A stretch of DNA of 64,000 bases from Dehalococcoidia bacterium (lineage in GTDB: Bacteria; Chloroflexota; Dehalococcoidia; DSTF01; JALHUB01), in assembly GCA_034420175.1 (NCBI GenBank), contig DAOULP010000083.1, positions 191 to 64,190 on the forward strand, given 5' to 3'. Under the pieces are notes generated by a model. The model had not been told where the DNA came from, did no database searches, and saw nothing but the letters and a program-made list of their open reading frames with translations. Both the position numbers and the translations under genes were made by a program. Of the stretch, positions 28,197-48,825 are shown one piece after another; positions within the stretch are counted from its first letter, which is position 1; each line of letters opens with the position of its first letter.

Positions 28197-30698
28197 TCAC
28201 GCGGCCTTTCTTGATTCCTGTGCAGCGTCACGGAGGAGCTCAGATACCTCACGAGGCCGTCCAATGTGGTATCCCTGGGCGTAATCCACCCCGTGCTCCC
28301 GAAGCCATCGTAGGGTCTGCTCGTCGCCCACGAACTCGGCGATGGTCTTCATGGCCAGTCCACGGGCGACCTGCACCATGGCCCGAACCATATGCTGGTC
28401 CACCGGGCTCACTGGAAGATCGAGGACAAAGCTGCCGTCGATCTTCAAGTAGTCGACGGGCAGGTGCTTCAACTGATTGAAGGAGGAGAAGCCCACGCCG
28501 AAGTCATCAAGGGCGAAACGGCATCCGAGAGCCTTCAGAGTTCTCACGAATCCTTGTGCGTCACCGATGTTGGCTATGGCGGCCGTCTCCGTCACTTCCA
28601 GCACCAAAGATGCTGGATCAATCGAGGTCGCCTCCAGTTCCCGCTGTATCAGGGGCAGCAACTCGGCATCGGAGAACGCCTTGCCCGAGAGGTTGACCTC
28701 AAGCCGCAGATCCCTGCCACTGCGCATCTGCTCGGCGATGATGTGGATGGCCCGCGTCACCACCCAGCGGTCTATGGCCTGGATCATGCCAAAGCGTTCG
28801 GCGATGTCGACGAACGCCTTCGCAGGAACGATCTTGTCTCCTCCATCCAAGCGGAGCAGCAGCTCATACTGGCTGATTCTGTTTCTGGGTAGGTCGAGAA
28901 TGGGCTGGGCGTAGAGCATGAGAAGGTCCTTGTCTATGGCTTCCCGGACGCGGTTCCGCCAGCCGAGCCTGGAGCCGATCTCCTCTTGCCACTTCCTCTC
29001 CGGCGCATAGACGCGGTAGGTATTGCGCCCATCTTCCTTCGCCTGGTACATGGCCAGATCAGCGCGGGCAAGCAGCTCTTCAGCCGTGTCCCCGTGCTCT
29101 GGGTAGAACGCCACGCCAGCGCTTGCCGTGACGGTGATGGGGTGCCCGCCGATGACGAACGGATGGTGTCGCACCATCTCGATGAGTTGCTCAGCCAGCG
29201 CATCTGCCTCCTCGGCATCCGTGTGAGACAGCATAATGCAGAACTCGTCGCCCCCGGGGCGTGCGACGATGTCCGTCTTCCTGAGCCGTCGCCGCAGGAG
29301 GACAGCCAGGTTCGCAAGAAGCTCATCGCCCGCCCCGTGCCCCAGACTGTCGTTCACATCCTTGAACTGATCCAGGTCCAAGAACAGCAGCGCCCCGTGT
29401 GTGCCATAGCGCTCCGCTTCCGCCAGCTCGCGGTCGAGCTCCTCCTCCAATCGACGCCGATTGAACAGATCCGTCAAGGGGTCATGACTAGCCAGGTGTA
29501 TGAGTTGCCCTTCATAGCGCTTGCGCTCCGTGATGTCCCTGAAGGTGACGACCGCACCCAAGATCTCCCCGTGGTCGTCCCGGATCGGGGTCACGATGTA
29601 CTCGACCGGAAAGCTGGTGCCGTCCTTTCTCCAGAACAGCTCGTCTGTGACGCGGTGAACGGTACCGTCGCTGATGGCAGCGCAGACAAGACACTGCTCC
29701 TCGGGGTAGAGGGTGCCATCTGGCTTCGAGCGGTGCACCACGTCGTGGGATCCTTGGCCGATCAGGTCCGCCACCTCGCACCCAATCATTCGCGCTGCCG
29801 CCGGGTTTGCGAACGTGGTCCGCCCTTGCCGGTCGACCCCGAAGATGCCTTCCCCCGCTGCCTTGAGAATGAGTTCGTTCTGTCGACTCACCCGCAGTAG
29901 ATCTTCCTCTGCGTGCTGGCGCCCGGCGACCATCAGATTGAAGTCCTGGGCAAGAGATGTCACCTCGCTAGGTCCGGAGACTTCGGCTCTCACACTCAAG
30001 TCGCCCTGCGTGATCGCCTTGACACTGCCCCGTAGCAACCTCAGGGGGCGCACGACCGAGAAGACCAGCATGACCACGAGCGCCGTCCCGCCGGTTAGGG
30101 CGACCGCGCTTAGGCCGACCATCAGCGTAGTGGTCATCTGGGAGGCCCGGTCCGCCGCCGCCCCTGCGCTGGCCAGCTCCGCCTGCTGCCGCAAGGACAA
30201 TTGACTCAGCTCGGTCGTCCGCGCGCCGGTAGTGGGCCACATTAGCGGGAAGTAGTATTGGCCCATATCGATTCTGGTGGAGATGTCGGCGGTGAGGGCC
30301 CTTTCGACACTCGCCTCTATCGTTGCGTCCTCCCGAGCGGTCTCGGCAGCGAACTGCTCCAGCACAGCCAAGCCATCTTCGTCGCCCAGAGCGCTGAGCC
30401 CAGCCAGACTCTGGTCAAGCGCCAGAGATCGCTCCTCCACTGTCTCATGGTACAGGTCAATGAAGGGAGTTGCGTCTTCTGCGAACACGGCAGCGGCCAG
30501 CATCGTCATGCCCCTCAGCGCCTGATAGCGCACGTTCTCCAGGGCGACGACGACCTCAGATCTCTGCTCCAGCGAGCGGTGGCGACGCCCCTGATCGCGG
30601 GCGTAGGAAAGGCCCACGATCGCCACGATCGCGAGAATCAGCATGAAGCCGGTGCCAGCCAGCAAGGACCGTCCTTGGGCCGATCTCCAACTGAACAT
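28197..30698 (-). CDS. Membrane sensor diguanylate cyclase/phosphodiesterase (periplasmic sensor, HAMP, PAS, GGDEF, EAL)
   Basis: Two TM segments flank a periplasmic domain. HAMP (ITQGDLSVRAEVSGPSEVTSLAQDFN). PAS. GGDEF motif RPGGDEF. EAL motifs YELLLRL and EVTET. Confidence 0.9.
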   Translation of the reverse strand: MFSWRSAQGRSLLAGTGFMLILAIVAIVGLSYARDQGRRHRSLEQRSEVVVALENVRYQALRGMTMLAAAVFAEDATPFIDLYHETVEERSLALDQSLAGLSALGDEDGLAVLEQFAAETAREDATIEASVERALTADISTRIDMGQYYFPLMWPTTGARTTELSQLSLRQQAELASAGAAADRASQMTTTLMVGLSAVALTGGTALVVMLVFSVVRPLRLLRGSVKAITQGDLSVRAEVSGPSEVTSLAQDFNLMVAGRQHAEEDLLRVSRQNELILKAAGEGIFGVDRQGRTTFANPAAARMIGCEVADLIGQGSHDVVHRSKPDGTLYPEEQCLVCAAISDGTVHRVTDELFWRKDGTSFPVEYIVTPIRDDHGEILGAVVTFRDITERKRYEGQLIHLASHDPLTDLFNRRRLEEELDRELAEAERYGTHGALLFLDLDQFKDVNDSLGHGAGDELLANLAVLLRRRLRKTDIVARPGGDEFCIMLSHTDAEEADALAEQLIEMVRHHPFVIGGHPITVTASAGVAFYPEHGDTAEELLARADLAMYQAKEDGRNTYRVYAPERKWQEEIGSRLGWRNRVREAIDKDLLMLYAQPILDLPRNRISQYELLLRLDGGDKIVPAKAFVDIAERFGMIQAIDRWVVTRAIHIIAEQMRSGRDLRLEVNLSGKAFSDAELLPLIQRELEATSIDPASLVLEVTETAAIANIGDAQGFVRTLKALGCRFALDDFGVGFSSFNQLKHLPVDYLKIDGSFVLDLPVSPVDQHMVRAMVQVARGLAMKTIAEFVGDEQTLRWLREHGVDYAQGYHIGRPREVSELLRDAAQESRKAA

Positions 30699-31555
30699 CT
30701 CGGGGCTCGTTCCACTCCTCTCCAGGACTGTGGGGTGCCATGGCGCCCGCGATCAACCGGGGGCGTGACGCCACGTCCCTCCACATCTGGTTATCGGCTG
30801 GACCGCTGACTCCGACATGCGCCTTCGGACTGACAGGGGCTCAGCCCCCAGGTAGACTACTCGCCTCTGCCGGGGGCTACTCACAGGACCCCTACGAGGG
30901 CGCCAGGTTCGAGCCGCCTCACTTCGGGCGCTGACATCGGCGACATCGGGAGCGCCGAAGGCTCCGCGCCGCAAGCGCCGGCCCAGGTGCTCGGTGGCAG
31001 TGACGTCGCCCAGGGCCTTCGCGGCGGCATCCCAAACGGGGCTGCGCGGTTGGTGTCCCTGGGCCTCGCACCTCTCGTTCGTAGCCTCTGCGGTCTCCTC
31101 ATAGGCTTTCCTGAGCCGGCGCTGCATGCGCCAGTCGAGGAACCGGCGCGTGGCGAGGCTGGCTGCAAACCTTGTGGCTGCCAGGGCGATGGTCGGCTCG
31201 GTCATGGCTCGTGTACCAGGAGCGCGATATGTCGCGGGCAGTTCAACCGCACGAGAGTGCTTCGCAGTTCGAGACGTACCGGGCGGCCCGGAGTCTGGCG
31301 GATGATAGTCAGGCTGTCGACGTCTGAGGCCAGTCGGGTGGCGCGCCGTTCGGGCCGTCCTCGGGGCGGCAATCCCCGAGATGACGGCGGACGGCCTGCA
31401 TCCGCCGAAAGGGTGAGGCGGGCTCACCCTCTCGGTCGATGCTGCGTCCGCCGGGACTTGCCGACCAACAAGCTGAGGGCCCTATTGGCCGATTCTGCAC
31501 CGAGAGACACGCTGCCCAGGTGCATTGACGGCTGGTCCAAGGGGGGAGCTTCCGG

Positions 31556-32356
31556 ATGAGACCTGGCACGTCCCCAGGGACAGTACCCCCTGGAAAGCGC
31601 GAGACACCGGAGGCCCGCCTCTTCCGATTGCATACCTCCCGAAGGAGCAGGACCCGTGCTGTATGGCTCGCCGTAGGTGCCACGGCGGCCATGACTGTGG
31701 TGCTTGTGGTCTGGATGATCCCTTGGGTGCCGGCCGGCATGACTGCGGACGACTACAGCCCCGCCGTACGGGTCGCCTTGGCGCTGGCCACCGGCAGCAC
31801 TGCCCTGAGTCTCCTGGCTCTGTTTGCACGACAGCCCATCGACGGAGAAGGAGAAGTCGCGCAGGTATGGCACAGTCTGTTGGGTAGCCGTAAAACATTA
31901 CGGAACCGCACCCAGTTCCACAAGCGGCTCGCGAGGGAGTGCGAGCGCGCACAGCGCGATCAGCGGCGCTGGCTGTCACTGCTGGTGGTGCGCGTCCAAG
32001 GGAATGGTGACTGCGGCATCAGAGGAAGCGCAGATGCCTTTGAGCTCATCGCAGGCTCAATGGTGCCGCTGGTGCGGTCCAGCGACGTCATCGGGATGGC
32101 GGGGGACAGCGAACTCGGTGTCCTCGCCATCGGCGCGGACGCCAAGGCACGGGAGATCATCTGTCTGAGGTTTGAGCCGGCGCTCGCCTCCGCCCTGCGC
32201 GAATGGTGGGCAGAGGCCGGGGTGTCCGGCAGGGAGGCCCTCGTCTCACTGGGAGCCAGCACCTTTGGCGCCGACGGAATTGAGCCGGGTCATCTGTTGG
32301 CCGCGGCCCGGGACTCGCTCACCCCTGTCATCCCTGGATCCAGGAGCGCTGCGTAG
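31556..32356 (+). CDS. Membrane protein with a degenerate GGDEF-like domain. Paralog of the 42062-42859 gene.
   Basis: N-terminal TM pair (AVWLAVGATAAMTVVLVVWMIPWVPAG...). RLARECERAQRDQRRWLSLLVVRV resembles the GGDEF A-site region, but no GG(D/E)EF motif. PWVPAGMTADDYSPAVRVALAL aligns with the paralog's PWFPGGLSEEDYSSQVALTL. Confidence 0.55.
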   Translation: MRPGTSPGTVPPGKRETPEARLFRLHTSRRSRTRAVWLAVGATAAMTVVLVVWMIPWVPAGMTADDYSPAVRVALALATGSTALSLLALFARQPIDGEGEVAQVWHSLLGSRKTLRNRTQFHKRLARECERAQRDQRRWLSLLVVRVQGNGDCGIRGSADAFELIAGSMVPLVRSSDVIGMAGDSELGVLAIGADAKAREIICLRFEPALASALREWWAEAGVSGREALVSLGASTFGADGIEPGHLLAAARDSLTPVIPGSRSAA

Positions 32357-32644
32357 CAGCCCGAGCGGCCCCACCCATGCCCTCGTCTGGCCTGACACGG
32401 TCTGCCGCCCCCTGGCCGTGTTCGTGAGGTGTCGTGCGGCGCATGCGCGGACTCCAGGAAGGCGGTGCAGCTCTGGGCGGCCCGCGCGCCGTCGGCGTTC
32501 CCACAGTACTCCTTCCGGCGTATGAGAAGATTCTGCCTTTTGACAGATACCCGCGCCGCCGCAGCGGCCGACGCTGTCACTAGGGAGCGATTCTCGCCTT
32601 GGTCGCATCCCGAGGGCTGATGCGCAACAAGAGGGAGGTCTTCC

Positions 32645-33016
32645 ATGGAGGCCAGGACACAAACCAGGAGAACGCGGAGTGGTGAAGACGGCTTCACGCT
32701 GGTTGAGCTTCTCATCGTTGTGGCCATTCTGGCCGTACTCGTCGCCGTCGTACTGCCCAACTTCACCGGCCTGCTGGGTGGCAGCCAGACGACAGCCGCC
32801 GAGGCCGAGAAGGTCATCGTGCAGACGGCTGTGGACGCCAAGATGGCGGACCAGGGCATGGCGACAACAACCGCCATCACTACGGCGACCAGCGACATGA
32901 CAACGGCCGCTGGTGGCTTTGGGCTGACGCCGACCTACATGCGCAGCACGGCCACCAACGGGACCTATACGGTCAACACCGCCGGGCAGGTCACGCAGGC
33001 CAGCACAGGGTACTGA
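32645..33016 (+). CDS. Type IV pilin / pseudopilin-like protein (prepilin N-methylation domain)
   Basis: Leader ending SGEDG then FTLVELLIVVAILAVLVAVVLPNF, the class III signal with Glu5. Thr/Ala-rich C-terminal part. Confidence 0.8.
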   Translation: MEARTQTRRTRSGEDGFTLVELLIVVAILAVLVAVVLPNFTGLLGGSQTTAAEAEKVIVQTAVDAKMADQGMATTTAITTATSDMTTAAGGFGLTPTYMRSTATNGTYTVNTAGQVTQASTGY

Positions 33017-33132
33017 CCCCGGCTTGGCATCGTGACGAGGTCGCGCCCAACCCCGGGCAACCTGACGAGACCAGTGCCAAGCCTGCCCGGCAACGCCCGA
33101 CCAGAAGGCGACTCCGGCGGGGAAGGGGTGCC

Positions 33133-33525
33133 ATGGGTGAGAAGATCCTTGTAGTCGAGGATTCGCCGACCGCTCTCCGGCTGGTGACCTTCGCCCTGGA
33201 GTCTGAGGGCTATGAGGTCATCTCGGCCGTCAACGGCCTTGAGGGCCTGCGCAAGGCCCGCGCCGAGGCGCCAGCTCTCGTCGTGCTGGACCTGGTGCTC
33301 CCCGGGATTGACGGAGGCGAGGTCTGCCAGCAGCTGCGCTCGGACCAGTGCAGCTCTCAAGCCCGCCTGCCCATTCTGGTGCTCAGCGCCTACCCTCAAT
33401 ACGCGGAGTGGTTGGCCCGCAGGGAAGACGGCGCCGACCGCTACCTCCCCAAGCCTGCCACGCCGGAAGAGATCACGGAGGCGGTCCGCAGCCTTCTCGA
33501 CGCGCGCCAGGACCCCGATGGCTGA
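33133..33525 (+). CDS. Single-domain response regulator (CheY-like receiver)
   Basis: KILVVEDSPTALRLV...LVVLDLVLPGIDGGEV...YLPKP shows the receiver-domain hallmarks. Confidence 0.85.
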   Translation: MGEKILVVEDSPTALRLVTFALESEGYEVISAVNGLEGLRKARAEAPALVVLDLVLPGIDGGEVCQQLRSDQCSSQARLPILVLSAYPQYAEWLARREDGADRYLPKPATPEEITEAVRSLLDARQDPDG

Positions 33526-33852
33526 GGTCTCTGCGTCGTCAACATCGCTGATGCCGGCTCGCTGGCGACGGAGCAGCTCGACGGCACGATGGCGCAAGCG
33601 GAGTTGAGTCGCCGATTCGCCTGAACCTCTCTTGTCAGCGTCTGGCTGATTACCGTACTTCGCGGCCGGTTCGGTGCACCCGCATGGCGCTTCTTTCAGT
33701 TGACTTGAAAAGTCCTGCCTGGGGTGGTAAAAAGCAGTGTGACCTGCGCCATGTGCCTGACACCGCTCGGATGCGGAATCTAGCTTCGGTTCGGGAGGAG
33801 CCCCTGATAACCGGCCGGGGGTAACAGCGCGAAGGAGCCGCTGAGGCGCGCC

Positions 33853-34593
33853 ATGCCGTCCCCGCCTCGGTCGCCGCGGAGAGGTCAGCCCAGCGTCCTG
33901 GTAGCGGACGATGACCCCGGTATCCTCGTCGTTCTCTCACGGGCCCTTGAGTCGAACGGCTTCCTCGTCTTCACCTGCAGCGACGGCCGCGAGGCCGTCA
34001 ATCTGCAGGAGCAGCTCCGCCCTTCTCTCGTAGTCCTCGACGTCAGAATGCCCAAGATGGACGGGCTCGCCGCCTGCCGGGACATTCGTTCCCAGTCCGA
34101 CGTGCCCATCGTCATGCTTACTGTCCTGGCCGGTGAGTCCGACGCCGCCCACGCCCTCGAGATGGGGGCGGACGACTACGTGAGGAAACCTTTCGGGCTG
34201 GACGAGTTCATGGCCCGTGTCAAAGCCGTTCTCAGGCGCACCGGCGTCACGGACTCCGGCGGGGAGCGGCTCGTGGCCGGCCCGCTGGTGGTCGACGAAC
34301 GCGAGCATCGGGTTGCCGTCGACGGTGTGGAGATCCCGCTGTCGAGGACTGAGTTCGCCCTTCTCGCCTACCTGGTCCGGAACGAGAACCGGGTGCTGAC
34401 CCATGACCAGATCCTCGAACGGGTCTGGGGTCCCGAGTACGTCGGGGCCCACAACGTGCTGCGCATGATGATGACCCGTCTACGTCAGAAACTGCGAACC
34501 CTGGACGCCCCGGTCATCGAGACCCTTGCGGGCGTCGGCTACCGACTAAAGCCACCCAATGATGAGCCGGAGGATGCCACGTCCTTCGACTAG
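33853..34593 (+). CDS. OmpR/PhoB-family two-component response regulator
   Basis: Receiver (VLVADDDPGILVVLSRALE...VVLDVRMPKMDGLAA) plus winged-helix Trans_reg_C (LSRTEFALLAYLVRNENRVLTHDQILERVWG...VGYRL). Confidence 0.9.
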   Translation: MPSPPRSPRRGQPSVLVADDDPGILVVLSRALESNGFLVFTCSDGREAVNLQEQLRPSLVVLDVRMPKMDGLAACRDIRSQSDVPIVMLTVLAGESDAAHALEMGADDYVRKPFGLDEFMARVKAVLRRTGVTDSGGERLVAGPLVVDEREHRVAVDGVEIPLSRTEFALLAYLVRNENRVLTHDQILERVWGPEYVGAHNVLRMMMTRLRQKLRTLDAPVIETLAGVGYRLKPPNDEPEDATSFD

Positions 34594-34638
34594 GCGGCTG
34601 GCGGAAAGCTACTCGCGGCGGAAAGAGGGGGTCGGCAG

Positions 34639-37600
34639 ATGGGAGACAAGGACCGGATCCCAAAACACCTCGCTCGCGAGCGGGCGCAGTCAAGAACGGG
34701 CAGGAAGGCTCACGCACGACCGTCCTCGGCCGTGCGCGAAGACGTTGGGGCGTACCAACGAGTCCTGGAGGACCTCGGCGAGGTACTCATCCGGGCAGAC
34801 GCCGACGGCACCATCGTCGAAGTCAGCCCATCGCCACTTGCATATGGGTACACCGCTGAGGACCTGATCGGGAAGCCCGCGCCGCGATTCTATGGGGGTT
34901 CGGAACAACGTGCGGCACTGCTGGCGGCCCTCGCCGAACACGGCGAGGTCACGGACTACGAGGTGCGCCTCAGGGCCAGGGACGGCCGCACCGTGGTCGC
35001 TTCCGCAAACGTACGTCTGCTTCGCCGTCCCGACGGCACGGTTGTCGGGGCTGAGGCTCTGCTCCGCGACATCACGGCGCGAAAACGGGCGGAGGAGGAG
35101 CTGCGAAAGGCCCACGATGAGCTGGAAGCGCGGGTGGCCGAGCGGACCGCGGAGCTGCTGAGGGCCAACGAACGCCTGGGCCAAGAGATCGAAGAGCGCA
35201 GGCGGGCGGAGCAGGCGGCTAGGGAGTCGGAATCGAAGTGGCGCTCGCTGGTGGAAAACGCTCCCGCCCTGATCATGACTCTCGACCGCGACGGCACGAT
35301 CCAGTTCGCCAACCACGGGGTGACAGGAGCTCCCCTGGAAGAGGCGATCGGGTCCTCGATCTTCAGGTACGCACCACCCCAGTATCACGATGACATGAGG
35401 GAGGTCTTCGCGCGGGTCTTCGAGACAGGGGAGATCGGCGGGGACTTCGACGTCCCCTGGCCAGAGGCAGATGGCAGCACGTCGTGGCATTCGGCGCGGG
35501 TGGGGCCCCTGAGGCAGAACGGCGAAGTCGTCGCCCTCACCATCATCGCGACGGAGGTGACGGAACGCAACCAGGCGGAGAACGCGCTACGGGAGAGCGA
35601 GGAGCGGTTCCATCGGCTGGCGGACGCGAGTTTCGAGGGCGTCGCCGTCCATGACAAAGGCAGGATCCTCGAGGCTAGTGAGCAGTATGCTTCGATGTTT
35701 GGCTATGCACTTTCCGACGTGATAGGGCGGCACGCGCTGGAGTTCACCGCGCCAGAGTGGCGGGCTCTTCTGGCGCAGCAGCTCGAGTCGGGGTTCGAAG
35801 GGCCGTTCGAGGCGGTAGGTCTAAGAAGGGACGGCACTACGTTCTGGGGTGAGGTGCGGGCGAAGGCCATCCCGTACCGAGGACGCACGGTCAGCGTGAC
35901 AGCCATACGCGACATTGCGGAGCGCAAGGAGGCGGAGGAGGCGCTTCGGGAGAGCGAGCGGCGCTTCCGGGATGTCCTGAGTGTCTCCCGTGACCTGACC
36001 TACAGGCTGAATCTGCAGATCGGGAGCTTTGACTACGTCAGCCCGTCCGTGCTCCGGCTGACAGGTTTCACGGTCAAGGAGTTCGTAGCTCTTGGCTGGA
36101 AAGGCGTTGCGAAGAGGTTCACCCCTGATACGCGGCCACACTTGCAGGGGATCGGCGACGGCCAGCCCAATCTTTCGATCGAGGCCGAAGAGACGCCTGA
36201 GGTCGAGTACCGATGGAGAGTCAAGAACGGTGAGTACCGCTGGTTTCGCGACAACAGGGCCCCGATCCGGGATGAACAGGGGCGGCCCGTCGCCGTAGTG
36301 GGCACGACCAGCGACGTCACGGAGCGCAAGCGAGCGGAGGAGGCCCTGCGCGAGAGTGAGGAGCGCCTGCGTGAGGTCTTGGACGCGTCCCGCGATGTCA
36401 TCTTTAGGCGCAGCCTACGGACCGACGAATTCGAGTACGTGAGCCCGGCCGCGTTTGAAGTCACCGGGTTCACTGCCGAGCAGCACGTTGCCATGGGCCG
36501 CAAGGGCGCTGACAAGAGGATTCACCCGGACGACCTCCCCGTACTGGACGCCCACACAGAGCGTCTGCTCAGTTCCGCCGGAGAAGAGGACACCATTCCT
36601 CCGGTCGACTACCGTTGGAGACACAAGGACGGGGAGTACCGCTGGATGAGCAGCAACCGTGTGCTGGTTCGCGACAGCGATGGTGAGCCAGTGGCCATCG
36701 TAGGCACCGTTCGCGACATCACGCAGCGCAAGCGGGTCGAGCAGGCCCTCCGCGATGGTGAGGAGCGGTTGCGCACAGTCGTCACCAATGCTCCTGTGAT
36801 CCTGTTCGCCACTGACAGCGACGGAGCGTTCACACTCTGTGACGGCAAAGGCCTCCAAGGCCTGGGAATGGCGCCAGGCGAGCATGTCGGCCAGTCGGTG
36901 TTCGATGTCTATCGTGACGTTCCGGTGATTGTTGACCACGCACGGCGAGCGCTGGCTGGCGAATCCTCGACGGCGCTGGTAGATCTCGGAGAGCTGACGT
37001 TTGAGGTTCACTGTACGCCTGTCCGTGACCACCAGGGGCGAATCACAGGCGGCATCGGCGTTGCCATCGATATCACAGAGCGCAAGCGGGCTGAGGAAGC
37101 GCTTCGGCAGAGCGAGGAGCGGTTTCGACTGCTGTACGAGGAAGCTCCTATCGGCTACCAGTCGCTGGATGAGGAGGGGCGCGTACTGACGGTAAACAAG
37201 ACTTGGCTGGCGCTTCTCGGGTACGCCAGCGACGAAGTCATCGGCCGGCCGTTCGGCGAGTTCCTCGTTCCGAGCCAGCAAGGACTCTACCAAGAGCGAT
37301 TCTCGCGATTCAGGGCTGCTGGCGAGGTTCACGATGTTGAGTTCGAGATGGTGCGCAAGGATGGGTCGCGCTTCCTGGGGCTCTTCGACGGAGTCATAGG
37401 CCGCGATGATCGAGGCGCGTTCAGGCAGACGCATTGCACCATGCACGACGTCACGGAACGGCGACGGGCCGAACAGGCGCTACGTGAGAGCGAGGAGCGC
37501 CTGCGCACCGTCGTGGCAAACGCGCCGCTATTCTTGTTCGCCACCGACCGGGATGGTGTGGTCATGCTGTCGGAAGGCAAGGGTTTGGAGAGCATTGGCC

Positions 37601-40161
37601 GTGGTCAAGGCGATGCCGTTGGACAGTCGGCGTTCGACAGGTACGGCGACATACCGGAAGTGGTGGGCAACATGCGCCGCGCCCTCGCTGGTGAATCGTT
37701 CACAGCAGTGGTGGAGCTGCGGGGCGCGACGCTGGAGATCCACCACGTGCCGATCCGCGACAACCAGGGACAGGTCACCGGCATGATCGGCGTCGCCACG
37801 GACATCACCGAGCGCAAGCGGGCGGAGCAGGCGCTGCGCGATAGCGAGGAGCGGCTGCGCCAGGTTCTGGAGGTGTCTCTGGAGCCGATCTACAGGCTCG
37901 ATCTCCGGACTGGCACCTACGACTACGTTAGCCCGTCCATCTGCCGTGTGCTGGGTTTCACCCCTAAGGAGCTGGTTGCAATGGGGTTCCAGGGAGTCGC
38001 GCGCAGGGTACATCCCAAGGACCGACAACGCGTGCGGCTCTCCCTTGGCTCTCTCCGCGACCACACAGCTCAACGTGGCGGCGAGCCGAGGGAGTATCGC
38101 TGCAGACACAAGAATGGCGAGTACCGCTGGCTGAGCGATAGCCGCGCCTTGATTCGTGACCGAGATGGGCGACCCGTGGCCATAGTCGGGACCGTCAGTG
38201 ACATCACGGAGCGCAAGCGGGCGGAGGAGGCACTACGCAGTAGAGAGAAAGAAGTCCGCGTGATTGCCGAGAACGTCCCAGCCTTGTTCTCGTACGTGGA
38301 CGCCCAAGCTCGCTACCGCTTCGTGAACAAGCGGTACGGAGAGTGGTTTGGGTTGGCCCCAACGGAGATCATTGGGAAGCACTACGGGGACATCGTTGGC
38401 CGGGAGGCATATGCGCTGATAAAGCATCGCGTCCACAGGGTGTTGTCGGGCGAGCGAGTGTCGTACGAAGAGGCGCTGCCCTACAAGTACGGCGGCAAGC
38501 GCTGGGTGACTGCGGACTACGTTCCAGACAGCGACGACAGGGGAACGGTACGGGGCTTCTTTGCCCTCGTCGTCGACATCACTGAGCGCAAGCGGGCGGA
38601 AGAGGCCCTGCGGGAGAGCGAGGAGCGCCTCCGGCTGCTGGCGGAGAACGCCCGCGACATCATCTATCGTTACCGGCTCAGTCCCACGCGCGGATTCGAG
38701 TACGTCAGCCCGGCGGCGACAACGATCAGCGGCTACACGCCGGAGGAGCACTACGCCAACCCCAACCTCACCTTCAGTATGATCCACCCCCGTGATCGGG
38801 AGGCCCTCCGGCAGGTGATCGATGAGGGCGCGACCGCGCCAATCGTCCTGCGCTGGATACGCAAGGACGGCGCCAGCGTATGGACGGAGCAGAGACTGGT
38901 CCCCATCTACGATGACGCCGGCAACCGTGTCGCACTCGAGGGGATCGCCCGCGACGTGACAGAGCGCCATCTGGCCGAGGAGGCGCTGCGCGAGAGCGAG
39001 GAGCGCTACCGAAGGCTGGTGCAGGACTCGGTGGACGGCATAGTGGTCGTTGAGGGTGAGGAGATTGCGTTCGTTAATCCAACCCTCGTCAGGATGATGG
39101 GGTGCCGGAGAGACAAGGAGATGGTGGGCCATCCCTTTACCGACTTCGTGTCACGGGAACACCGACGGTTGATGGCGGAACGGGGCCGTGCCAGGGAACG
39201 GGGCGAGGATGTGCCCGACCGCTATGAGTTCAAGGCGATGCGCAAGGATGGCAGCGAGTTCGACGCCGAGCTCTCCGTCGGCATGATAACCTACCATGGC
39301 AGGCCAGCGCGGCAAGGGATCATCAGGGAGGTCACGGAGCGCAAGCGGGCGGAGGAAGAGCTGGAGCAGCACCGGCACCACCTCGCGGCGCTGGTTGAGG
39401 AGCGAACCGCCGAAGTCACCGCCCTGAACACGGAGCTGGAAGCCTTCGTCCACTCCGTGTCGCACGATCTGCGCGCCCCCCTGCGCAGCATCGATGGCTT
39501 CAGCCGCGCCCTTTTGGAGGACCTGGGCGAGCGGCTGGATGAGGCGGCCCTCGACTCCGTCCGCCGCGTCCGCGGGGCAACCCAGCGCATGAAGCAGCTC
39601 ATGGAGGACCTGCTGGCTCTGTCCCACGTGACAAAGACCGAGATCCGGGACGAGGCGGTCGATCTCAGCGACCTGGCGAAGACCATCGCCGGTGAACTCT
39701 TGGACGACGAGCCGGAACGGAAGGTGACCTTCGAGATCGCGGACGGTCTGACCGCGAGGGGTGACCCGTCTCTGCTGCAGATGGCCCTGGAGAACCTGCT
39801 GGACAACGCCTGGAAGTTCACGAGTCGTCACGAGACGGGGCACATTGAGTTCGGCTCCGCCAAAATTGGCCGCGAGCTGGCGTACTTCGTGCGTGACGAT
39901 GGTGTCGGCTTCGACATGGCCGGGCGGGAAAGGCTGTTCGTCCCCTTCCAGCGGCTGCATGCGGAGAGTGACTTCCCCGGCAGTGGCATCGGCCTGCCTA
40001 CCGTGCAACGCGTGGTGCATCGCCACGGCGGTCGGGTGTGGGCCGAAGGTTCGCCGGAAGGCGGCGCCACGTTCTACTTCACGCTCGCGGGCCGGAAGGG
40101 CCGGCGCCGCCAGCAGCCCCGTCCCAAGGGCCGCCCTCGGCGGTCTCCTGGCCAGACATGA
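34639..40161 (+). CDS. Giant cytoplasmic sensor histidine kinase with about 12 tandem PAS/PAC domains plus HisKA and HATPase_c
   Basis: 1840 aa. The inter-PAS linker DITERKRAEEALRESEERLR is iterated about 12 times. HisKA H-box (FVHSVSHDLRAPLRSI). HATPase N/G boxes (LLDNAWKFT, GSGIGLPTVQRVV). Confidence 0.9.
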   Translation: MGDKDRIPKHLARERAQSRTGRKAHARPSSAVREDVGAYQRVLEDLGEVLIRADADGTIVEVSPSPLAYGYTAEDLIGKPAPRFYGGSEQRAALLAALAEHGEVTDYEVRLRARDGRTVVASANVRLLRRPDGTVVGAEALLRDITARKRAEEELRKAHDELEARVAERTAELLRANERLGQEIEERRRAEQAARESESKWRSLVENAPALIMTLDRDGTIQFANHGVTGAPLEEAIGSSIFRYAPPQYHDDMREVFARVFETGEIGGDFDVPWPEADGSTSWHSARVGPLRQNGEVVALTIIATEVTERNQAENALRESEERFHRLADASFEGVAVHDKGRILEASEQYASMFGYALSDVIGRHALEFTAPEWRALLAQQLESGFEGPFEAVGLRRDGTTFWGEVRAKAIPYRGRTVSVTAIRDIAERKEAEEALRESERRFRDVLSVSRDLTYRLNLQIGSFDYVSPSVLRLTGFTVKEFVALGWKGVAKRFTPDTRPHLQGIGDGQPNLSIEAEETPEVEYRWRVKNGEYRWFRDNRAPIRDEQGRPVAVVGTTSDVTERKRAEEALRESEERLREVLDASRDVIFRRSLRTDEFEYVSPAAFEVTGFTAEQHVAMGRKGADKRIHPDDLPVLDAHTERLLSSAGEEDTIPPVDYRWRHKDGEYRWMSSNRVLVRDSDGEPVAIVGTVRDITQRKRVEQALRDGEERLRTVVTNAPVILFATDSDGAFTLCDGKGLQGLGMAPGEHVGQSVFDVYRDVPVIVDHARRALAGESSTALVDLGELTFEVHCTPVRDHQGRITGGIGVAIDITERKRAEEALRQSEERFRLLYEEAPIGYQSLDEEGRVLTVNKTWLALLGYASDEVIGRPFGEFLVPSQQGLYQERFSRFRAAGEVHDVEFEMVRKDGSRFLGLFDGVIGRDDRGAFRQTHCTMHDVTERRRAEQALRESEERLRTVVANAPLFLFATDRDGVVMLSEGKGLESIGRGQGDAVGQSAFDRYGDIPEVVGNMRRALAGESFTAVVELRGATLEIHHVPIRDNQGQVTGMIGVATDITERKRAEQALRDSEERLRQVLEVSLEPIYRLDLRTGTYDYVSPSICRVLGFTPKELVAMGFQGVARRVHPKDRQRVRLSLGSLRDHTAQRGGEPREYRCRHKNGEYRWLSDSRALIRDRDGRPVAIVGTVSDITERKRAEEALRSREKEVRVIAENVPALFSYVDAQARYRFVNKRYGEWFGLAPTEIIGKHYGDIVGREAYALIKHRVHRVLSGERVSYEEALPYKYGGKRWVTADYVPDSDDRGTVRGFFALVVDITERKRAEEALRESEERLRLLAENARDIIYRYRLSPTRGFEYVSPAATTISGYTPEEHYANPNLTFSMIHPRDREALRQVIDEGATAPIVLRWIRKDGASVWTEQRLVPIYDDAGNRVALEGIARDVTERHLAEEALRESEERYRRLVQDSVDGIVVVEGEEIAFVNPTLVRMMGCRRDKEMVGHPFTDFVSREHRRLMAERGRARERGEDVPDRYEFKAMRKDGSEFDAELSVGMITYHGRPARQGIIREVTERKRAEEELEQHRHHLAALVEERTAEVTALNTELEAFVHSVSHDLRAPLRSIDGFSRALLEDLGERLDEAALDSVRRVRGATQRMKQLMEDLLALSHVTKTEIRDEAVDLSDLAKTIAGELLDDEPERKVTFEIADGLTARGDPSLLQMALENLLDNAWKFTSRHETGHIEFGSAKIGRELAYFVRDDGVGFDMAGRERLFVPFQRLHAESDFPGSGIGLPTVQRVVHRHGGRVWAEGSPEGGATFYFTLAGRKGRRRQQPRPKGRPRRSPGQT

Positions 40162-40184
40162 GTAGGGAAAGAAAGTGGGCTTCG

Positions 40185-41732
40185 ATGGGAGAACCTGTGC
40201 GTTTGCTGATTGTCGAGGATTCAGAGGATGACACAATGCTGGTCGTGCGCGAGTTGCGGCGCGGGGGTTATGCCCCGGAACATGAACGCGTCGAGACGTC
40301 AGCGGCGATGCGCGCGGCCCTGGCCGGCTCGCGATGGGATGTGGTCATCTCCGACTTCTACCTGCCGACCTTCGACGCACCCAGCGCCTTGGAGGTGTTG
40401 AAGGAGAGTGGGCTTGACCTGCCCTTCATCGTTGTCACGGGCAGCATTGGCGAGGACATCGCCGTCGCCGCTATGAAGGCTGGGGCCAGCGACTATCTCC
40501 TCAAGGACAACCTGGCCCGCCTGGTGCCCGCGGTTCGGCGAGAGCTCCGAGAGGCGGAGAGCCGTAGACAGGGGAGGGCACTCGTCGACCGGCTTGCCCA
40601 GGCGGAGAAGCTGGAGAGCCTGGGCCGGCTGGCAGGCGGCGTGGCCCACGATCTCAGTAGCATCCTAACCTCCATCCTGGGGTACGCGGACCTGGGGTTG
40701 GGCCAGCTCCCGGATGGCCACGCCGCGCGTGACGACATCCAAGGGATCCGGCAGCATGTCCAGCGCGCGGCGACCCTCACCCGGCAGCTCCTGGCGGTCG
40801 CCAGCCGGCAGGTGATAGAGCCACGGGTCCTCAACCTGAATGACGCGATACTCGACTCTCTCCCGACGCTCCGTCCCATCCTCGGCGGCGACGTTGAGCT
40901 GGCCACGGCCCTGGCCCCTGACCTGTGGCCGGTGACGGCGGATCCCCGTCAGATCGAGCAGGTCCTCGTTTGCCTGGTGACCAACGCCCAAGAGGCTATA
41001 CCTGGCGGGGGCGAGATCACCATCGAGACGCGCAACGCCCGCCTGAGTGAGGGTGGGCGGGACAGGCAGCCGCCCGACGTCGCTGACGAGTGTGCGGTCC
41101 TGGCGGTCAGTGACACCGGTGTGGGGATGACCGACGAGGTCAAGGCTCGTGCCTTTGAGCCGTTCTTCTCTACCAAGCCACCGGGCGAGGGCAACGGTCT
41201 GGGCCTGGCGACCTGCTACGGAATCGTCGCTCAGAACGGCGGACACATCGACGTGAGCAGCGCGCCCGATCTTGGCACGACCTTCAACGTCTACCTGCCC
41301 CGCGCCAGGCAGGCTGTCGAGGCGCCACTTGAGGCTGAGGGGCCGGGCCCTGGAGCGGCGGGTACGGAGACGCTGCTCCTGGTTGAGGACGAGGAGTCGG
41401 CCCGGGTGGTCATGGCTCAGGCACTTCGCCGCTTCGGCTACACAGTTGTAGAGGCTGCGGATGGCCCGGCGGCGCTCCGCATCGTCTCAGAACCCAGCGA
41501 TCCCACGATCGATCTGTTGGTGACCGACATCGTGATGCCTCACATGAGCGGCAAAGAGCTGGCAGACAGGATGGCACTCACACACCCAAGCACCAGAGTT
41601 CTCTTCATCTCCGGTTACCCGGATGAGACCATCGCGCGCCATGGTGTGCTTGGGGCCGGCATCACCCTGTTGCAGAAGCCCTTCTCCTCGGCAGAGCTGG
41701 CGACCGCAATCCGGCGGGTACTGGATCGCTAG
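40185..41732 (+). CDS. Hybrid histidine kinase / response regulator (REC-HisKA-HATPase_c-REC)
   Basis: N-terminal receiver (VRLLIVEDSEDD...DVVISDFYLPTFDAPS). H-box LAGGVAHDLSSIL. HATPase (GNGLGLATCYGIV). C-terminal receiver (TLLLVEDEE...DLLVTDIVMPHMSG). An in-frame alternative ATG at 40158 overlaps the upstream stop (ATGA). Confidence 0.85.
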   Translation: MGEPVRLLIVEDSEDDTMLVVRELRRGGYAPEHERVETSAAMRAALAGSRWDVVISDFYLPTFDAPSALEVLKESGLDLPFIVVTGSIGEDIAVAAMKAGASDYLLKDNLARLVPAVRRELREAESRRQGRALVDRLAQAEKLESLGRLAGGVAHDLSSILTSILGYADLGLGQLPDGHAARDDIQGIRQHVQRAATLTRQLLAVASRQVIEPRVLNLNDAILDSLPTLRPILGGDVELATALAPDLWPVTADPRQIEQVLVCLVTNAQEAIPGGGEITIETRNARLSEGGRDRQPPDVADECAVLAVSDTGVGMTDEVKARAFEPFFSTKPPGEGNGLGLATCYGIVAQNGGHIDVSSAPDLGTTFNVYLPRARQAVEAPLEAEGPGPGAAGTETLLLVEDEESARVVMAQALRRFGYTVVEAADGPAALRIVSEPSDPTIDLLVTDIVMPHMSGKELADRMALTHPSTRVLFISGYPDETIARHGVLGAGITLLQKPFSSAELATAIRRVLDR

Positions 41733-42061: not shown

Positions 42062-42859
42062 TCAGGCGGCCCTGTCTTCCGGGCTCCCTGCGTGTCCGCT
42101 CTGGCCTGCGTCCGGGTCCCCCAGAGGGCGGCGGGCGTGGCGGATGAGATCCTGCGCATCTCTTGCGTCATCCGGGTAGGTGGAGACGCCCAGGCGAAGA
42201 CACTTGCCCGCGGAGCCGCCCGGCCTGCCGGTCAGCGCTCTGTCGAGCGCAGCGCACAAGCGCTGGCCCAAGTCCAACGCGGACTCCTTGTCGACGCCGG
42301 AGGTGGCGACGGCCAGTTCGTTGGCGCCCAGGACGGCTACTGCGTCCGAATCGCGGGTGCCGCGCACTAGGGCATCGCTCAGTTGCTGCAGAGCTTTCTC
42401 CGGGCCGCCCTTCCTGTTGGCGACGGCCGCCAACTCGAAGCGGAAGAGCAGTAACGAAACAGGGATATCAAGGCGCTGAGCTCTGTCGCACTCCAGGCTC
42501 AACCGGTCATAGAAGTAACCCCTGGCATAGAGCCCCGTGGCGGAGTCGTAGACCCCGCTGAGCGCCGCTATGGCGTCGTTTCGCCGACGGACCCACTGAC
42601 GCAATAGCAGCGTCATCGCGCCGACCCCGAAGGTTCCGCCCCCAAGGATGAGTGTGAGCGCCACCTGGCTGCTGTAGTCCTCTTCCGAGAGGCCGCCCGG
42701 GAACCAGGGGATCGCCAAGTACAAGAAGAAGGCCAGCATGGTCCAGAAGACGGCACCTATCAAGCGGGACCACCTGAGAAGCCGGATATACTGACGGTAT
42801 AGCCGTGAGCCGGCACGCCTCTCCTCCACCCGGAGCCGCAGTGTCACGTTGTCGTCCAT
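42062..42859 (-). CDS. Membrane protein with a degenerate GGDEF-like domain. Paralog of 31556-32356.
   Basis: TM pair, then SGVYDSATGLYARGYFYDRLSLECDRAQRLDIPVSLLLFRFE is a GGDEF-fold segment without GGDEF. Confidence 0.55.
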   Translation of the reverse strand: MDDNVTLRLRVEERRAGSRLYRQYIRLLRWSRLIGAVFWTMLAFFLYLAIPWFPGGLSEEDYSSQVALTLILGGGTFGVGAMTLLLRQWVRRRNDAIAALSGVYDSATGLYARGYFYDRLSLECDRAQRLDIPVSLLLFRFELAAVANRKGGPEKALQQLSDALVRGTRDSDAVAVLGANELAVATSGVDKESALDLGQRLCAALDRALTGRPGGSAGKCLRLGVSTYPDDARDAQDLIRHARRPLGDPDAGQSGHAGSPEDRAA

Positions 42860-42958
42860 AGTCTCATCCTCGACTTGCCGGGTGGTGCACTGGTTCGAGC
42901 CTCATCTCGCCCCAGGCCCCGTCGGCGAAGCCATCGTGTGGCCGCTACCCGCTCACCG

Positions 42959-46591: not shown

Positions 46592-46820
46592 TGCCGGGCC
46601 TGCTCCTCCCCGTTGGCGATACGGGCGGACGGCACGCCTGCATTCCCACGACGTGCTGGCGCCGTGGGCTCGCGCACTTCCCACATGTCAGATCGGCTTC
46701 AGGGGGTGGCGTCCGCACCCGCCCTTTGGCCGATGGACGTATCAGCCAAGAGGCCGATAGGCCTCAGTTGTCGTGATCTGCCGTGAGCGCCCTCCTTCGA
46801 GGACTCAGAGTCTTGTGGCG

Positions 46821-47618
46821 CTAGCCGGCCTTCAATTCGTCAGCCTGTCGCTCAACCAGAGGCCAGGGCTGGCGCAAGCCGAGGAGCGCCAGGGTGGCCG
46901 TGAGCCGGTCCGGCGTGCCAAGTCGACGGTAGGCGTGTCGCAGGTGAGTCTTCACCGTCCCGACGCTGAGGTGGAGCCTGGCCCCGATCTCCTTGTTGCT
47001 CATGCCCCGCGCCACGAGCTCAAGCACCTCCCCCTCACGAGGACTGACAGAGTGCAACACGCGGGGGTCTACTCGAGCGCCTGCGTCCAGACGTCCAGCG
47101 CGTTCTTGTGGGGCTCGCTGCTCAGGTAGTCGAGAGGCTACCAGCGGGTCCATCACAAACCAGCGATGGGCGACGGCCAACAGCGCGCTCGGGAGAGCGT
47201 CTCCCGCCAGGCTCCCGAGAACGTACCCGCTAGCACCGGCCCGAACCGCTGCCATCAAGGAATCCGCGCTGGCATCGCGGGCCAGCACAACCACGTGCGC
47301 GCCTGCGAAGGCCTGGACGACACGCCGGAGCGATTCCGCTCCGTCTGATTCCAGAAGGTCTATCCCCACCAGCACGATGTCTGGTGGAGGACAGCGGAAC
47401 GTATCCAGGCTCATCAGGTCGGCGGATGGCCCCGCCACCACCTCCAGATCTCGGCAGGCGGAGAGAGCCGCCTGAATGCCGTCCCGCAATAGGGGGGACG
47501 GCTCCAACAAGAGGATCCGTCGGCGGCGGACTGCGGCTGCTGAGTCGGCTTGGCCAATCGAGAGGTGTTCACCACTCCCGGTGGGCGCGGGGCCACTTGC
47601 GGTGAGATTCTGTGTCAT
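46821..47618 (-). CDS. NarL/FixJ-family response regulator (REC + LuxR HTH)
   Basis: GGAGGAG RBS before ATG 47618; the ORF opens at 47744. Receiver RILLLEPSPLLRDGIQ..DIVLVGIDL. LuxR HTH LSPREGEVLELVARGMSNKEIGARLHLSVGTVKTHLRHAYRRLG. Confidence 0.85.
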   Translation of the reverse strand: MTQNLTASGPAPTGSGEHLSIGQADSAAAVRRRRILLLEPSPLLRDGIQAALSACRDLEVVAGPSADLMSLDTFRCPPPDIVLVGIDLLESDGAESLRRVVQAFAGAHVVVLARDASADSLMAAVRAGASGYVLGSLAGDALPSALLAVAHRWFVMDPLVASRLPEQRAPQERAGRLDAGARVDPRVLHSVSPREGEVLELVARGMSNKEIGARLHLSVGTVKTHLRHAYRRLGTPDRLTATLALLGLRQPWPLVERQADELKAG

Positions 47619-47733
47619 TGGGTCTCCTCCCTGCTGCAGACGGTGCGTCTTGGCCGATGGACCACTGCTGGCATCACATCTGCGGGCTACAGGTGCCCCG
47701 CTTCCCCCGGGGCGGTGTCCGAACACCATCACG

Positions 47734-48531
47734 CTAGGCCGCATCCACGGCCTTCGTCTCGGCCACCATCTTGCGAAGACGGCTCAAGGCGCGACGGTGG
47801 ATCTCGCAGGCGCGGGCGGACGACACTCCCAGACATCGCGAGATGCTCACCATCGTGTCACCGTGGAAGTACCGGCGAACCACGACTTCCCGCTCGCGGT
47901 GTGGGAGCGAGGCCACCATTCTGCGGATGAACTCGGCCTGAATCCGATCGATAGCAGCCTCTTCGGCCGGCCCCTCGCTGCCCCCCTTCTCCTCAGCTTC
48001 CCTTCCCGCTTCCCACAGATGTAGGGTGCGAATGGCCCGCGACTCCATCAACGCTCTGGCCTCCCTCCGGCCCGTTCCCAGCCGGGCCGCCACTTCAGCC
48101 GGTTCCGGCTCACGCCCTAGTTCGATCGCGAGTTCGCTCCACACGGCGTCGTACCGCCGCAGGTTGTCTCGTATCTGACGGGAGTGAGGCTCCGCCCTTC
48201 GAAGCGAGTCGACGATGGCACCACGGATGCGGATGGAGGCGAAGGCCGAGAAGGCCACGCCCCGCTCCGGCTCGAAGGCGTGGGCCGCCTGCACCAGCGC
48301 CACATAGCCGTCGCTTTCGGCGTCCTCTCGGCCCACCCGCCCGCTGTCTTGTACCAGACATCGGGCGAAGTACCTCACCAAAGGAATGCAGCTCGTGATC
48401 AATTTCTCCTGTGGCGTCAACTCTCTTCTTGCCCTCCGTCGGCATCGTTGCCGACTGCGGCAGCCGGACGAGCGCTGCTGGCTGCCATCGTTCCTTCCCA
48501 AGGCGACACCATTGTGCGCCTGACGGATCAC
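47734..48531 (-). CDS. Sigma-70 family RNA polymerase sigma factor (group 3, FliA/SigB-like)
   Basis: Region 2 (LITSCIPLVRYFARCLV..DAESDGYVALVQAAHAFEPERGVAFSAFASIRIRGAIVD). Region 4 HTH (VVRRYFHGDTMVSISRCLGVSSARACEIHRRALSRLR). Exact start uncertain. Confidence 0.8.
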   Translation of the reverse strand: MIRQAHNGVALGRNDGSQQRSSGCRSRQRCRRRARRELTPQEKLITSCIPLVRYFARCLVQDSGRVGREDAESDGYVALVQAAHAFEPERGVAFSAFASIRIRGAIVDSLRRAEPHSRQIRDNLRRYDAVWSELAIELGREPEPAEVAARLGTGRREARALMESRAIRTLHLWEAGREAEEKGGSEGPAEEAAIDRIQAEFIRRMVASLPHREREVVVRRYFHGDTMVSISRCLGVSSARACEIHRRALSRLRKMVAETKAVDAA

Positions 48532-48825
48532 GAAAGCGTTTCACGGTCAGAGGCTTGTGTGTCAAAGGCGTAACAGCGCTCACTGCCGCCACGGCGCAGC
48601 TTCCACATCCGAAGGACGGGTAGGCTCAGGACACCCTCACGGCGGCGAGGATTCGCCGATTGTTCAATGGAATGTGGCGTCCGCCGGCCGTCAGGCGGCG
48701 GTCACCGCGGCGGATGTCGGATTGGACTCCGGCCTCATGACCCGAACAGCGGCCGGGTCTCGGTGCCCGTCTTCGTCTCTCCACTCGCCGACGGGGCTGG
48801 TACTGGGAGGGCAGACAGCGTGGAG

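Follow-up and report, generated by a model that had tools for sequence, protein, structure and literature searches.

PssE of Listeria is a degenerate-GGDEF receptor of the I-site type, which carries its RxxD motif five residues upstream of the degenerate motif and is essential for exopolysaccharide (EPS) (PMC4125290), and YdaK of Bacillus works paired with the cyclase DgcK (PMC5422440, PMC7064775). Both resemble PelD of Pseudomonas and Bacillus: all three are anchored in the membrane by their N-terminus, keep the GGDEF fold around an active site that has been ruined and have RxxD at a common position, and their genes are found near polysaccharide genes and enzymes of cyclic di-GMP (c-di-GMP) metabolism (PMC4125290, PMC5422440, PMC7064775, PMC7112168). 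Here we analyse a signal-transduction interval, positions 28197-48531 of a stretch of 64,000 nucleotides from a Dehalococcoidia bacterium (contig DAOULP010000083.1; the whole stretch is called the window), that encodes two membrane proteins of a similar architecture, 31556 and 42062, named after their lower coordinate as are the other genes. The similarity of the two to PssE, YdaK and PelD is architectural; at the sequence level NCBIfam gives a generic GGDEF domain only.

It is fairly probable, in our judgement, that at least four separate signalling modules have come together in the interval as a lineage-specific aggregation, which lies beside an EPS locus of the Wzx/Wzy type and controls surface structures, and that the interval is not one conserved or mobile unit. 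The domain map was obtained by Pfam and NCBIfam scans of the window proteins, and the gene calls used for starts were taken from the public record (contig CAZWDW010000008.1 of GCA_964632905.1, a metagenome-assembled genome of an uncultured organism; L001). The features of the interval are as follows.

28197-30698, minus strand: membrane sensor enzyme, HAMP-PAS-GGDEF-EAL (Pfam, motifs); ends -KAA
30699-31555: divergent spacer of 857 bp between genes 28197 and 31556
31556-32356, plus strand: degenerate-GGDEF membrane protein, subfamily B (weak GGDEF match, hairpin, RSSD, GDSEL); ends -SAA
32645-33016, plus strand: small prepilin of 123 amino acids, leader ...G↓FTLVE (PF07963, TIGR02532)
33133-33525, plus strand: single-domain CheY-like response regulator (PF00072, 81 bits)
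33853-34593, plus strand: OmpR-type response regulator (REC and Trans_reg_C)
34639-40161, plus strand: soluble histidine kinase of 1840 amino acids, 12 PAS domains followed by HisKA and HATPase_c (Pfam and an iterated hidden Markov model, HMM)
40197-41732, plus strand: hybrid kinase REC-HisKA-HATPase-REC (Pfam), 511 amino acids by the gene call
42062-42859, minus strand: degenerate-GGDEF membrane protein, subfamily A (hairpin, RDSD, GANEL); ends -RAA
42959-46591, minus strand: membrane sensor enzyme, HAMP-PAS-PAS-GGDEF-GAF-HD-GYP; start from the gene call, the longest open reading frame (ORF) reaching 46684; ends -AAA
46821-47618, minus strand: NarL/GerE-type response regulator with an atypical receiver (Pfam, NCBIfam)
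47734-48420, minus strand: group-3 sigma-70 family factor with regions 2, 3 and 4 (Pfam); longest ORF to 48531; ends -DAA

The map bears out the original prediction that nearly every gene between 28197 and 48531 is sensory or regulatory, the small prepilin being the exception, and the core that it named (pilin, CheY-like regulator, OmpR-type regulator, PAS kinase and hybrid kinase) is matched by the domain scans. In the arrangement that we propose, module 1 would consist of the subfamily-B protein, the pilin and the CheY-like regulator (31556-33525), a set that in relatives opens an operon for type IV pili, one that includes an MshEN-type ATPase. Module 2 (33853-41732), made up of the OmpR-type regulator, the 12-PAS kinase and the hybrid kinase, would be a cytoplasmic phosphorelay. 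Module 3, read on the minus strand from 48420 to 42062, would join the sigma factor, the atypical NarL-type regulator, the HD-GYP enzyme and the subfamily-A protein, and module 4 would be the RbdA-like HAMP-PAS-GGDEF-EAL enzyme 28197, with a sensor and HAMP segment paralogous to that of module 3.

Gene order in related loci

Two related loci (L002, identical; L086, 87% identical) are syntenic with the window throughout the part that was recovered, which runs from the sigma factor gene to that of the giant kinase, and among the loci examined kinase homologs were found only in these two. Dispersal of these genes in related genomes had been named as a sign against the island. Relatives at about 50% identity do carry parts of the cluster in separate loci; therefore the cluster is not conserved as a whole and was built from older two- and three-gene modules. 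In the loci of divergent relatives that were examined, the searches yielded no homologs for the sensor module of 28197 and 42959, the sigma factor or the HD-GYP domain.

One of these modules comprises a NarL-type regulator and the subfamily-A protein. The regulator gene lies directly upstream of the subfamily-A gene, on the same strand, in 18 of the 38 metagenome loci with enough flanking sequence. The upstream regulators are 42-54% identical to 46821 of the window, tracking the identity of the receptors (48-54%), and elsewhere the regulator gene is usually followed by those of FabH and a Na/Ca exchanger. The HD-GYP enzyme of 1210 amino acids stands between regulator and receptor only in the window, L002 and L086. 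Judged from these sequences, the pair of regulator and subfamily-A receptor is ancient, and the large enzyme was inserted between its members in this lineage. A Wzy/methyltransferase/GT4 cluster is located a few kb upstream of the subfamily-A gene in L083 and L084.

The subfamily-B protein has a different setting. In L091, L092 and L130 its gene is followed by those of a 118-residue protein, a 54-residue protein, a pilin (78% identical to that of the window) and a CheY-like regulator (58% identical). The L091 ortholog is itself 59% identical to 31556, and the order receptor, pilin, CheY is collinear with that of the window. L091 and L092 continue with an MshEN/T2SSE ATPase, T2SSF, minor-pilin-like genes, PilM and PilN, and a divergent GT4/methyltransferase cluster lies upstream. 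Glycosyltransferase genes adjoin the receptor gene in L091; in the window the first EPS gene is about 6 kb from 42062. The surface-behaviour role that had been suggested for the interval is made plausible by these surroundings, since 31556 orthologs head a type IV pilus operon beside glycosyltransferases and some 42062 orthologs occur near genes for Wzy, a methyltransferase and glycosyltransferases. An OmpR-type regulator that is 40-41% identical to 33853 is encoded near the subfamily-B receptor gene in L093 and L095.

The MshEN domain is a high-affinity c-di-GMP receptor (PMC5013675). The order seen in L091 and L092, where the 31556 ortholog precedes pilin, CheY and an ATPase with an MshEN domain, resembles the control of type IV pili by MshE in Vibrio and PilF in Thermus. 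Unlike those systems, the window has no ATPase and platform genes after CheY; no pilus machinery was found anywhere in its 64 kb, so that receptor, pilin and CheY are kept without them. We know of no description of a role for a degenerate GGDEF protein heading a pilus operon with an MshEN-type ATPase.

Several other features of these loci were observed. The complete type IV pilus-like operon headed by the 31556 ortholog in L091 and L092 (10001-20792) includes a pilin-like protein of 766 amino acids, and two genes for hydrolase-guanylate cyclase fusions lie upstream of the operon. The 118-residue protein encoded right after the receptor ends in -AKAA. In L093 a gas-vesicle cluster (36-4510; GvpA, GvpL/F, GvpH-like and AAA proteins) is placed a few kb upstream of the 31556 ortholog.

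The degenerate-GGDEF family and its alanine tails

Proteins 31556 and 42062 are 28% identical over 208 amino acids, the membrane part included (E 2e-18), and 31556 matches the generic GGDEF model with an E of just 0.004; the two are closer to each other than to generic GGDEF proteins and are paralogs, as had been anticipated. Their genes have the inverted placement expected for them, being convergently oriented around the core. The Pfam GGDEF score of 42062 (47.6 bits) passes the cut-off of 23.8 and that of 31556 (17.3 bits) fails it. Each paralog has its own ortholog group (21 matches for 42062, 12 for 31556), whose members, the near-identical relatives set aside, are 43-59% identical to it, those of 31556 47-59%; therefore, as far as sequence comparison tells, the duplication is old.

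When the two proteins are aligned with 28197 and 42959, whose GGDEF domains are intact, the catalytic DxD on β1, KxxND and GHxxGD prove to be all replaced in both. The GG[DE]EF motif, which is present in none of the 78 family members collected, is changed to GDSEL in 31556 and to GANEL in 42062, the family consensus being GGNEL. The two proteins have the GGDEF fold and lack the motif and the metal/GTP residues of active diguanylate cyclases, and they would be unable to make c-di-GMP. In both of them, RxxD is retained exactly five residues upstream of the degenerate motif (RSSD-x5-GDSEL and RDSD-x5-GANEL), and its residues R169 and D172 are invariant in an alignment of 18 sequences from both subfamilies. 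By analogy with PssE, YdaK and PelD, we infer that 31556 and 42062 are I-site receptors of c-di-GMP.

In an AF2 model of 42062 a pair of long helices with a short loop between them forms the N-terminal part and is followed by the GGDEF fold; in a Foldseek search all its top matches were GGDEF domains (E 1e-7, target TM-score 0.66-0.74). Conservation in the family is highest in the hairpin loop PWxPxG(x4)DY (residues P, W, P, G, D and Y), which reads PWVPAG...DY in 31556 and PWFPGG...DY in 42062. In this the family differs from PssE, YdaK and PelD: its membrane part is a two-helix hairpin only, with an invariant outer loop, and its C-terminus carries a conserved Ala-Ala. It also lacks the GAF domain of PelD, and its genes stand outside the EPS operon, those of subfamily A typically paired with a NarL-type regulator and those of subfamily B heading an operon for pilin, CheY and type IV pilus proteins. 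The adjacency of enzyme and receptor in the cluster has a parallel in YdaK and its dedicated cyclase.

A profile search of 1.84 billion representatives gave 45 clusters (at 50% identity) with E<=1e-30, the level beyond which weaker matches blend into ordinary GGDEF proteins. The metagenome loci were found with a hand-made degenerate DNA pattern for the hairpin loop, which returned 57 loci, 52 of them with true family members. NCBIfam has the generic GGDEF domain and no model specific to the family, which is apparently undescribed.

The ssrA/ClpXP degron has a C-terminal Ala-Ala as its main determinant, and such an end controls the Streptomyces proteins sigma-AntA, ClgR and PopR (PMC7142297, PMC9775585); 67 of the 71 sigma-AntA orthologs end in AA (PMC7142297). 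Between 28.2 and 52.0 kb of the window, seven of about 15 genes encode such an end, namely all four GGDEF proteins (28197, 31556, 42062 and 42959), the sigma factor 47734 and the products of 51018-51470 and 51525-52001; the rest of the window adds one such protein, the eighth, that of 16810-18309, in about 40 ORF proxies (Fisher p 2e-4). Among the collected family members, -AA is found in 53 of 78 and [AVTS]A in 67; among complete metagenome copies the figures are 28 and 37 of 43, most of the others ending in -LAV. The 31556 group ends in -AA without exception (12/12), and 20 of the 21 close matches of 42062 end in [AVT]A. In related loci the tail is present in four of five family members and in just two of 57 neighbouring genes, one of these two being the 42959 ortholog.

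The residues that precede the tail vary, acidic in subfamily A and basic in subfamily B, so that the family shows the pattern of sigma-AntA, a conserved terminal -AA behind variable residues; it also includes tail variants of the ClpXP type such as LVA and LAV. Given the conservation of the tail and the role of Ala-Ala in the ssrA/ClpXP degron, regulated proteolysis is a reasonable reading, and the pattern suggests a protease of the ClpXP type that turns over the receptors and, in this cluster, the sigma factor, two regulators and the enzymes as well. A difference from sigma-AntA, ClgR and PopR is that the tail is here carried by putative c-di-GMP receptors and by enzymes that are anchored in the membrane, which might need extraction or a membrane protease such as FtsH. 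We put forward as a tentative possibility, one that we hold to be rather improbable as a whole, that this is an undescribed family of hairpin-anchored receptors whose abundance is set by a ClpXP-type Ala-Ala degron, and that in this lineage the tail has spread to the neighbouring enzymes, sigma factor, response regulator and ArsR regulator.

Sensor enzymes, kinases, regulators and flanking genes

The N-terminal sensor and HAMP module is shared by the two large enzymes: residues 1-267 of 28197 are 47% identical to residues 32-298 of 42959 (E 4e-53), while their PAS-GGDEF parts are just 31% identical. No Pfam family matches the shared sensor region. Its AF2 model, built from the two sequences (pLDDT 79.5), is all-helical, with a first transmembrane helix (TM1), four helices, a second transmembrane helix (TM2) and HAMP, the topology of sensors of the NarQ/Tar type. 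Unlike those sensors, it has no Pfam match, its model is from two sequences and its structural matches are weak, being to the NarQ sensor-TM-HAMP fragment and to four-helix-bundle (4HB) ligand-binding domains (best E 0.008, TM-score 0.35-0.45). Because they share this module, 28197 and 42959 probably read related extracytoplasmic signals, and they probably differ in output.

The GGDEF motif of 28197 is intact and is accompanied by an RKTD I-site. The nearest solved relative of its EAL domain is PA0861/RbdA of P. aeruginosa (5xgb, E 9e-56), and the motifs ELLLR (the ELL variant), EVNLS, EVTE, DDFGVGFSS, KID and QGY are present. AEFVGDE replaces AEGVE, with Gly at the second Glu of EGVE, all other signature residues being kept. 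RbdA, a phosphodiesterase, has the same PAS-GGDEF-EAL order and the same ELL and AEFV variants; it differs in its N-terminal sensor, which in 28197 is the predicted periplasmic four-helix bundle with HAMP, and in having Glu after AEFV where 28197 has Gly. In 42959 the GGDEF motif is also intact, without an RxxD I-site, and the HD-GYP domain is fully canonical (HD at 1057, HDIGK at 1096, HHERWDGTGYP ending at 1159; PF13487, 108 bits). Between HAMP and the first PAS, at residues ~300-430, 42959 has an extra region of about 130 residues with a weak GAF match (E 0.01) and no counterpart in 28197. A single duplication of a two-gene unit, sensor enzyme plus receptor, was considered and rejected: the receptors split anciently (28%, each with an ortholog group of its own at 47-59%), but the sensor modules still share 47% identity and were not found in the loci of the relatives.

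The giant kinase had been credited with 12 PAS domains, exactly the number counted by the iterated HMM, Pfam giving 10-11 stretches; the HMM was trained on the same proteins, so that its E-values are inflated. Domains 4, 5, 9 and 11 form one subfamily with an insertion (34-55% identical), domains 6 and 8 are 62% identical, and a linker repeat of 71 nt occurs 12 times. The kinase has therefore internal duplications that are not simple tandem copies. The hybrid kinase 40197-41732 has CckA-like and LvrB-like NCBIfam matches, both below their cut-offs.

The prepilin 32645 has the cleavage and methylation site ...GEDG↓FTLVELLIVVAILA of a prepilin leader, with scores above the cut-offs of both models (PF07963, 32.7 against 21.2 bits; TIGR02532, 29.5 against 16.3). 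In the receiver of the NarL-type regulator 46821, EP stands for DD, A for T/S and G for K, and the conserved Asp is two residues off the aligned position, which fits its sub-threshold Pfam REC score (27.1 bits, cut-off 30.2). Its orthologs share EP for DD and Ala for Thr/Ser, and the window copy also lacks the conserved Lys. These substitutions suggest a control other than simple phosphorylation; 46821 is probably an atypical regulator and possibly a phosphorylation-independent one. The best match of the sigma factor 47734 is to FliA/WhiG (TIGR02479, 136.8 bits, below the cut-off of 189.6), and only the sigma-70 superfamily model passes.

The 857-bp gap 30699-31555 is probably a long regulatory spacer. 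An ORF of 224 codons on its minus strand (30753-31427) was rejected as a gene on account of its flat GC content by codon position (0.68/0.68/0.70, against about 0.70/0.46/0.78 in real genes), and it has no homologs and no Pfam or NCBIfam match. An Rfam scan of the window found no riboswitch or other RNA besides tRNA-Met at 18389-18463.

The EPS cluster said to adjoin the interval is indeed there, beginning with the Wzz/BY-kinase gene and continuing with Wzx/Wzy genes at 54.5-63.9 kb. The genes to the right of the interval are the following.

48820-50235, plus strand: Wzz/GNVR chain-length determinant fused to a BY-tyrosine kinase (TIGR01007, 190 bits), first EPS gene
50228-51001, plus strand: histidine kinase
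51018-51470, plus strand: response regulator; ends -RAA
51525-52001, plus strand: ArsR-type helix-turn-helix regulator; ends -AAA
54509-63870, plus strand: Wzx/Wzy-type EPS genes (WecG, priming sugar transferase, second chain-length/ATPase pair, Wzx, GT2, methyltransferase, Wzy)

The signalling genes run past the right boundary of the interval, to 52.0 kb, and are interleaved with the first EPS gene: the histidine kinase, response regulator and ArsR-type regulator (50228-52001) separate the BY-kinase gene from the remaining EPS locus. Within that locus, at 56753-58632, there is a second, split gene resembling a chain-length determinant, paired with a ParA-like ATPase. The cluster is a regulatory neighbourhood of an ordinary sort; c-di-GMP and two-component genes often gather beside a polysaccharide locus in environmental bacteria whose regulatory repertoires are large.

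Competing readings and a proposed circuit

The interval had been described as an island-like unit, assembled in part by shuffling of domains, and neither description held. That it is a horizontally acquired, strain-specific mobile element is in our opinion most improbable. A tRNA-Met gene at 18389-18463 followed by DNA of lower GC content (0.61-0.63 at 25-30 kb), and a NucC-like PD-(D/E)xK nuclease and a Schlafen/AlbA_2 protein encoded just left of the interval, would suit it. However, the interval does not stand out in GC content (0.62-0.67, and 0.63-0.67 at 30-48 kb, in a window of about 65% that ranges over 0.61-0.69); Pfam and repeat scans found in it no integrase or transposase domain and no bounding direct or inverted repeats; its genes have orthologs in related metagenome contigs with vertical-looking, co-varying identity; and the mobile-looking DNA is confined to 18.7-27.7 kb, outside the interval, the sole tRNA gene being 10 kb to the left. 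The segment 18389-27705 consists of the tRNA-Met gene and about 9 kb of slightly lower-GC DNA in which no integrase was found. It encodes two proteins without a family match (18719-19441, 240 amino acids; 21395-23986, 863 amino acids), a double zinc-ribbon protein (23896-25101), a DUF6602 / PD-(D/E)xK NucC-like nuclease (25642-26373) and the Schlafen AlbA_2 protein (26488-27705), and it may be an integrated defence or mobile element in its own right. The shuffling of PAS modules between cluster genes, by recombination at conserved linkers, is very unlikely too. It was proposed from a linker thought to be common to three sensors, which is present exactly, over 18 residues, in the giant kinase, and matches at just 15 of 18 residues in 42959 and over only the first eight or so in 28197. 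At the DNA level linkers of 25-82 nt are 71-96% similar among the three genes (inverted repeats I1-I18), and some PAS domains of the giant kinase, 47-62% identical, point to duplication within that protein. Yet the DIT motif at the end of PAS domains, with a charged coiled-coil linker behind it, has been described as widespread (PMC3183031, PMC4810494). In a control set of 80 unrelated GGDEF loci (1.2 Mb), the pattern DIT[ED..][RQ][KR]..E..L was found in 10 loci of unrelated lineages, as in DVTEQKRSEEALRKSEERF of a metagenome-assembled genome of Candidatus Edwardsbacteria. DNA repeats between cluster genes are limited to these linkers, similarity stops at their ends, and the PAS cores are 22-38% identical between proteins, no closer than unrelated PAS domains; the only module with raised identity between genes is the N-terminal sensor with HAMP, which contains no PAS. 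As the linker (DITERKRAEE...) is this generic motif and the cores are so divergent, it is no evidence for local shuffling.

The main rival to an aggregation that controls surface structures treats the modules as mere neighbours: independent regulatory operons, unrelated in their targets, that lie close together and near the EPS locus with no functional significance. We hold this to be improbable, if well worth considering: the modules occupy different loci in relatives at about 50% identity, they form at least four transcription units on both strands, and a promoter and terminator scan found no shared regulatory sites or terminators beyond shuffled controls. On the other hand, a paralogous sensor enzyme is paired twice with a degenerate-GGDEF receptor within 20 kb, seven neighbouring regulators share the -AA tail, both receptor subfamilies recur beside surface-structure genes elsewhere, and the arrangement is kept in relatives at 87% identity. 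A different proposal, concerning the degenerate GGDEF proteins themselves, is that they are no c-di-GMP receptors and act instead, independently of any nucleotide, as scaffolds or membrane adaptors with the hairpin loop as their conserved part. It agrees with the location of the most invariant residues in that membrane loop and not in the GGDEF domain, and with the loss of RxxD from roughly a quarter of the members by regular expression. We regard it as unlikely, since R169 and D172 stand in the register of proven I-site receptors (PMC4125290) and the genes adjoin c-di-GMP-metabolising enzymes here and an MshEN-type ATPase in relatives. Several points weigh against the reading that we favour. 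That genes are adjacent is no proof of a single circuit formed by the modules; the NarL-type regulator is upstream in just about half of the informative loci; and many subfamily-A orthologs, those of L088 and L090 included, lie among housekeeping genes (FabH, Na/Ca exchanger, pyruvate kinase), so that the link to EPS is loose. An in-register [RK]xxD is kept in just 58 of the 78 family members according to a crude regular expression, and the model of 42062 is of moderate quality (pLDDT 67). The EAL activity of 28197 is uncertain because Gly stands at the second Glu of EGVE. Finally, a C-terminal AA could serve another purpose, and it is likelier to arise by chance in an Ala-rich proteome, where about 1.5% would be expected, a figure far below the observed rates.

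For an aggregation of modules acting on surface structures, we propose the following model. The enzymes 28197 and 42959 would sense related extracytoplasmic signals and set the level of c-di-GMP, acting as local sources and sinks for the receptors. Proteins 31556 and 42062 would bind c-di-GMP at the retained RxxD and relay the signal to membrane or regulatory partners, which might be the NarL-type regulator or the pilus or EPS machinery. Extra transcriptional control would come from the PAS phosphorelay and the sigma factor. The output on surface structures would most likely be EPS and possibly pili.

The DIT linker of PAS domains, being widespread, should not be taken as a sign of local domain shuffling. 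The family of 31556 and 42062 offers a clean, testable set of candidate c-di-GMP receptors, recognisable by their invariant loop outside the cytoplasm, the I-site that they retain and a conserved di-alanine tail, and its recurring partners, the NarL-type regulator and the pilin-CheY-type IV pilus operon, point to signal routes to transcription and to pili. The -AA tails on neighbouring regulators hint at coordinated proteolytic control. If this is true, a single protease would reset the surface-behaviour circuit as a whole, and second-messenger sensing would be linked to the proteolysis of its receptors.

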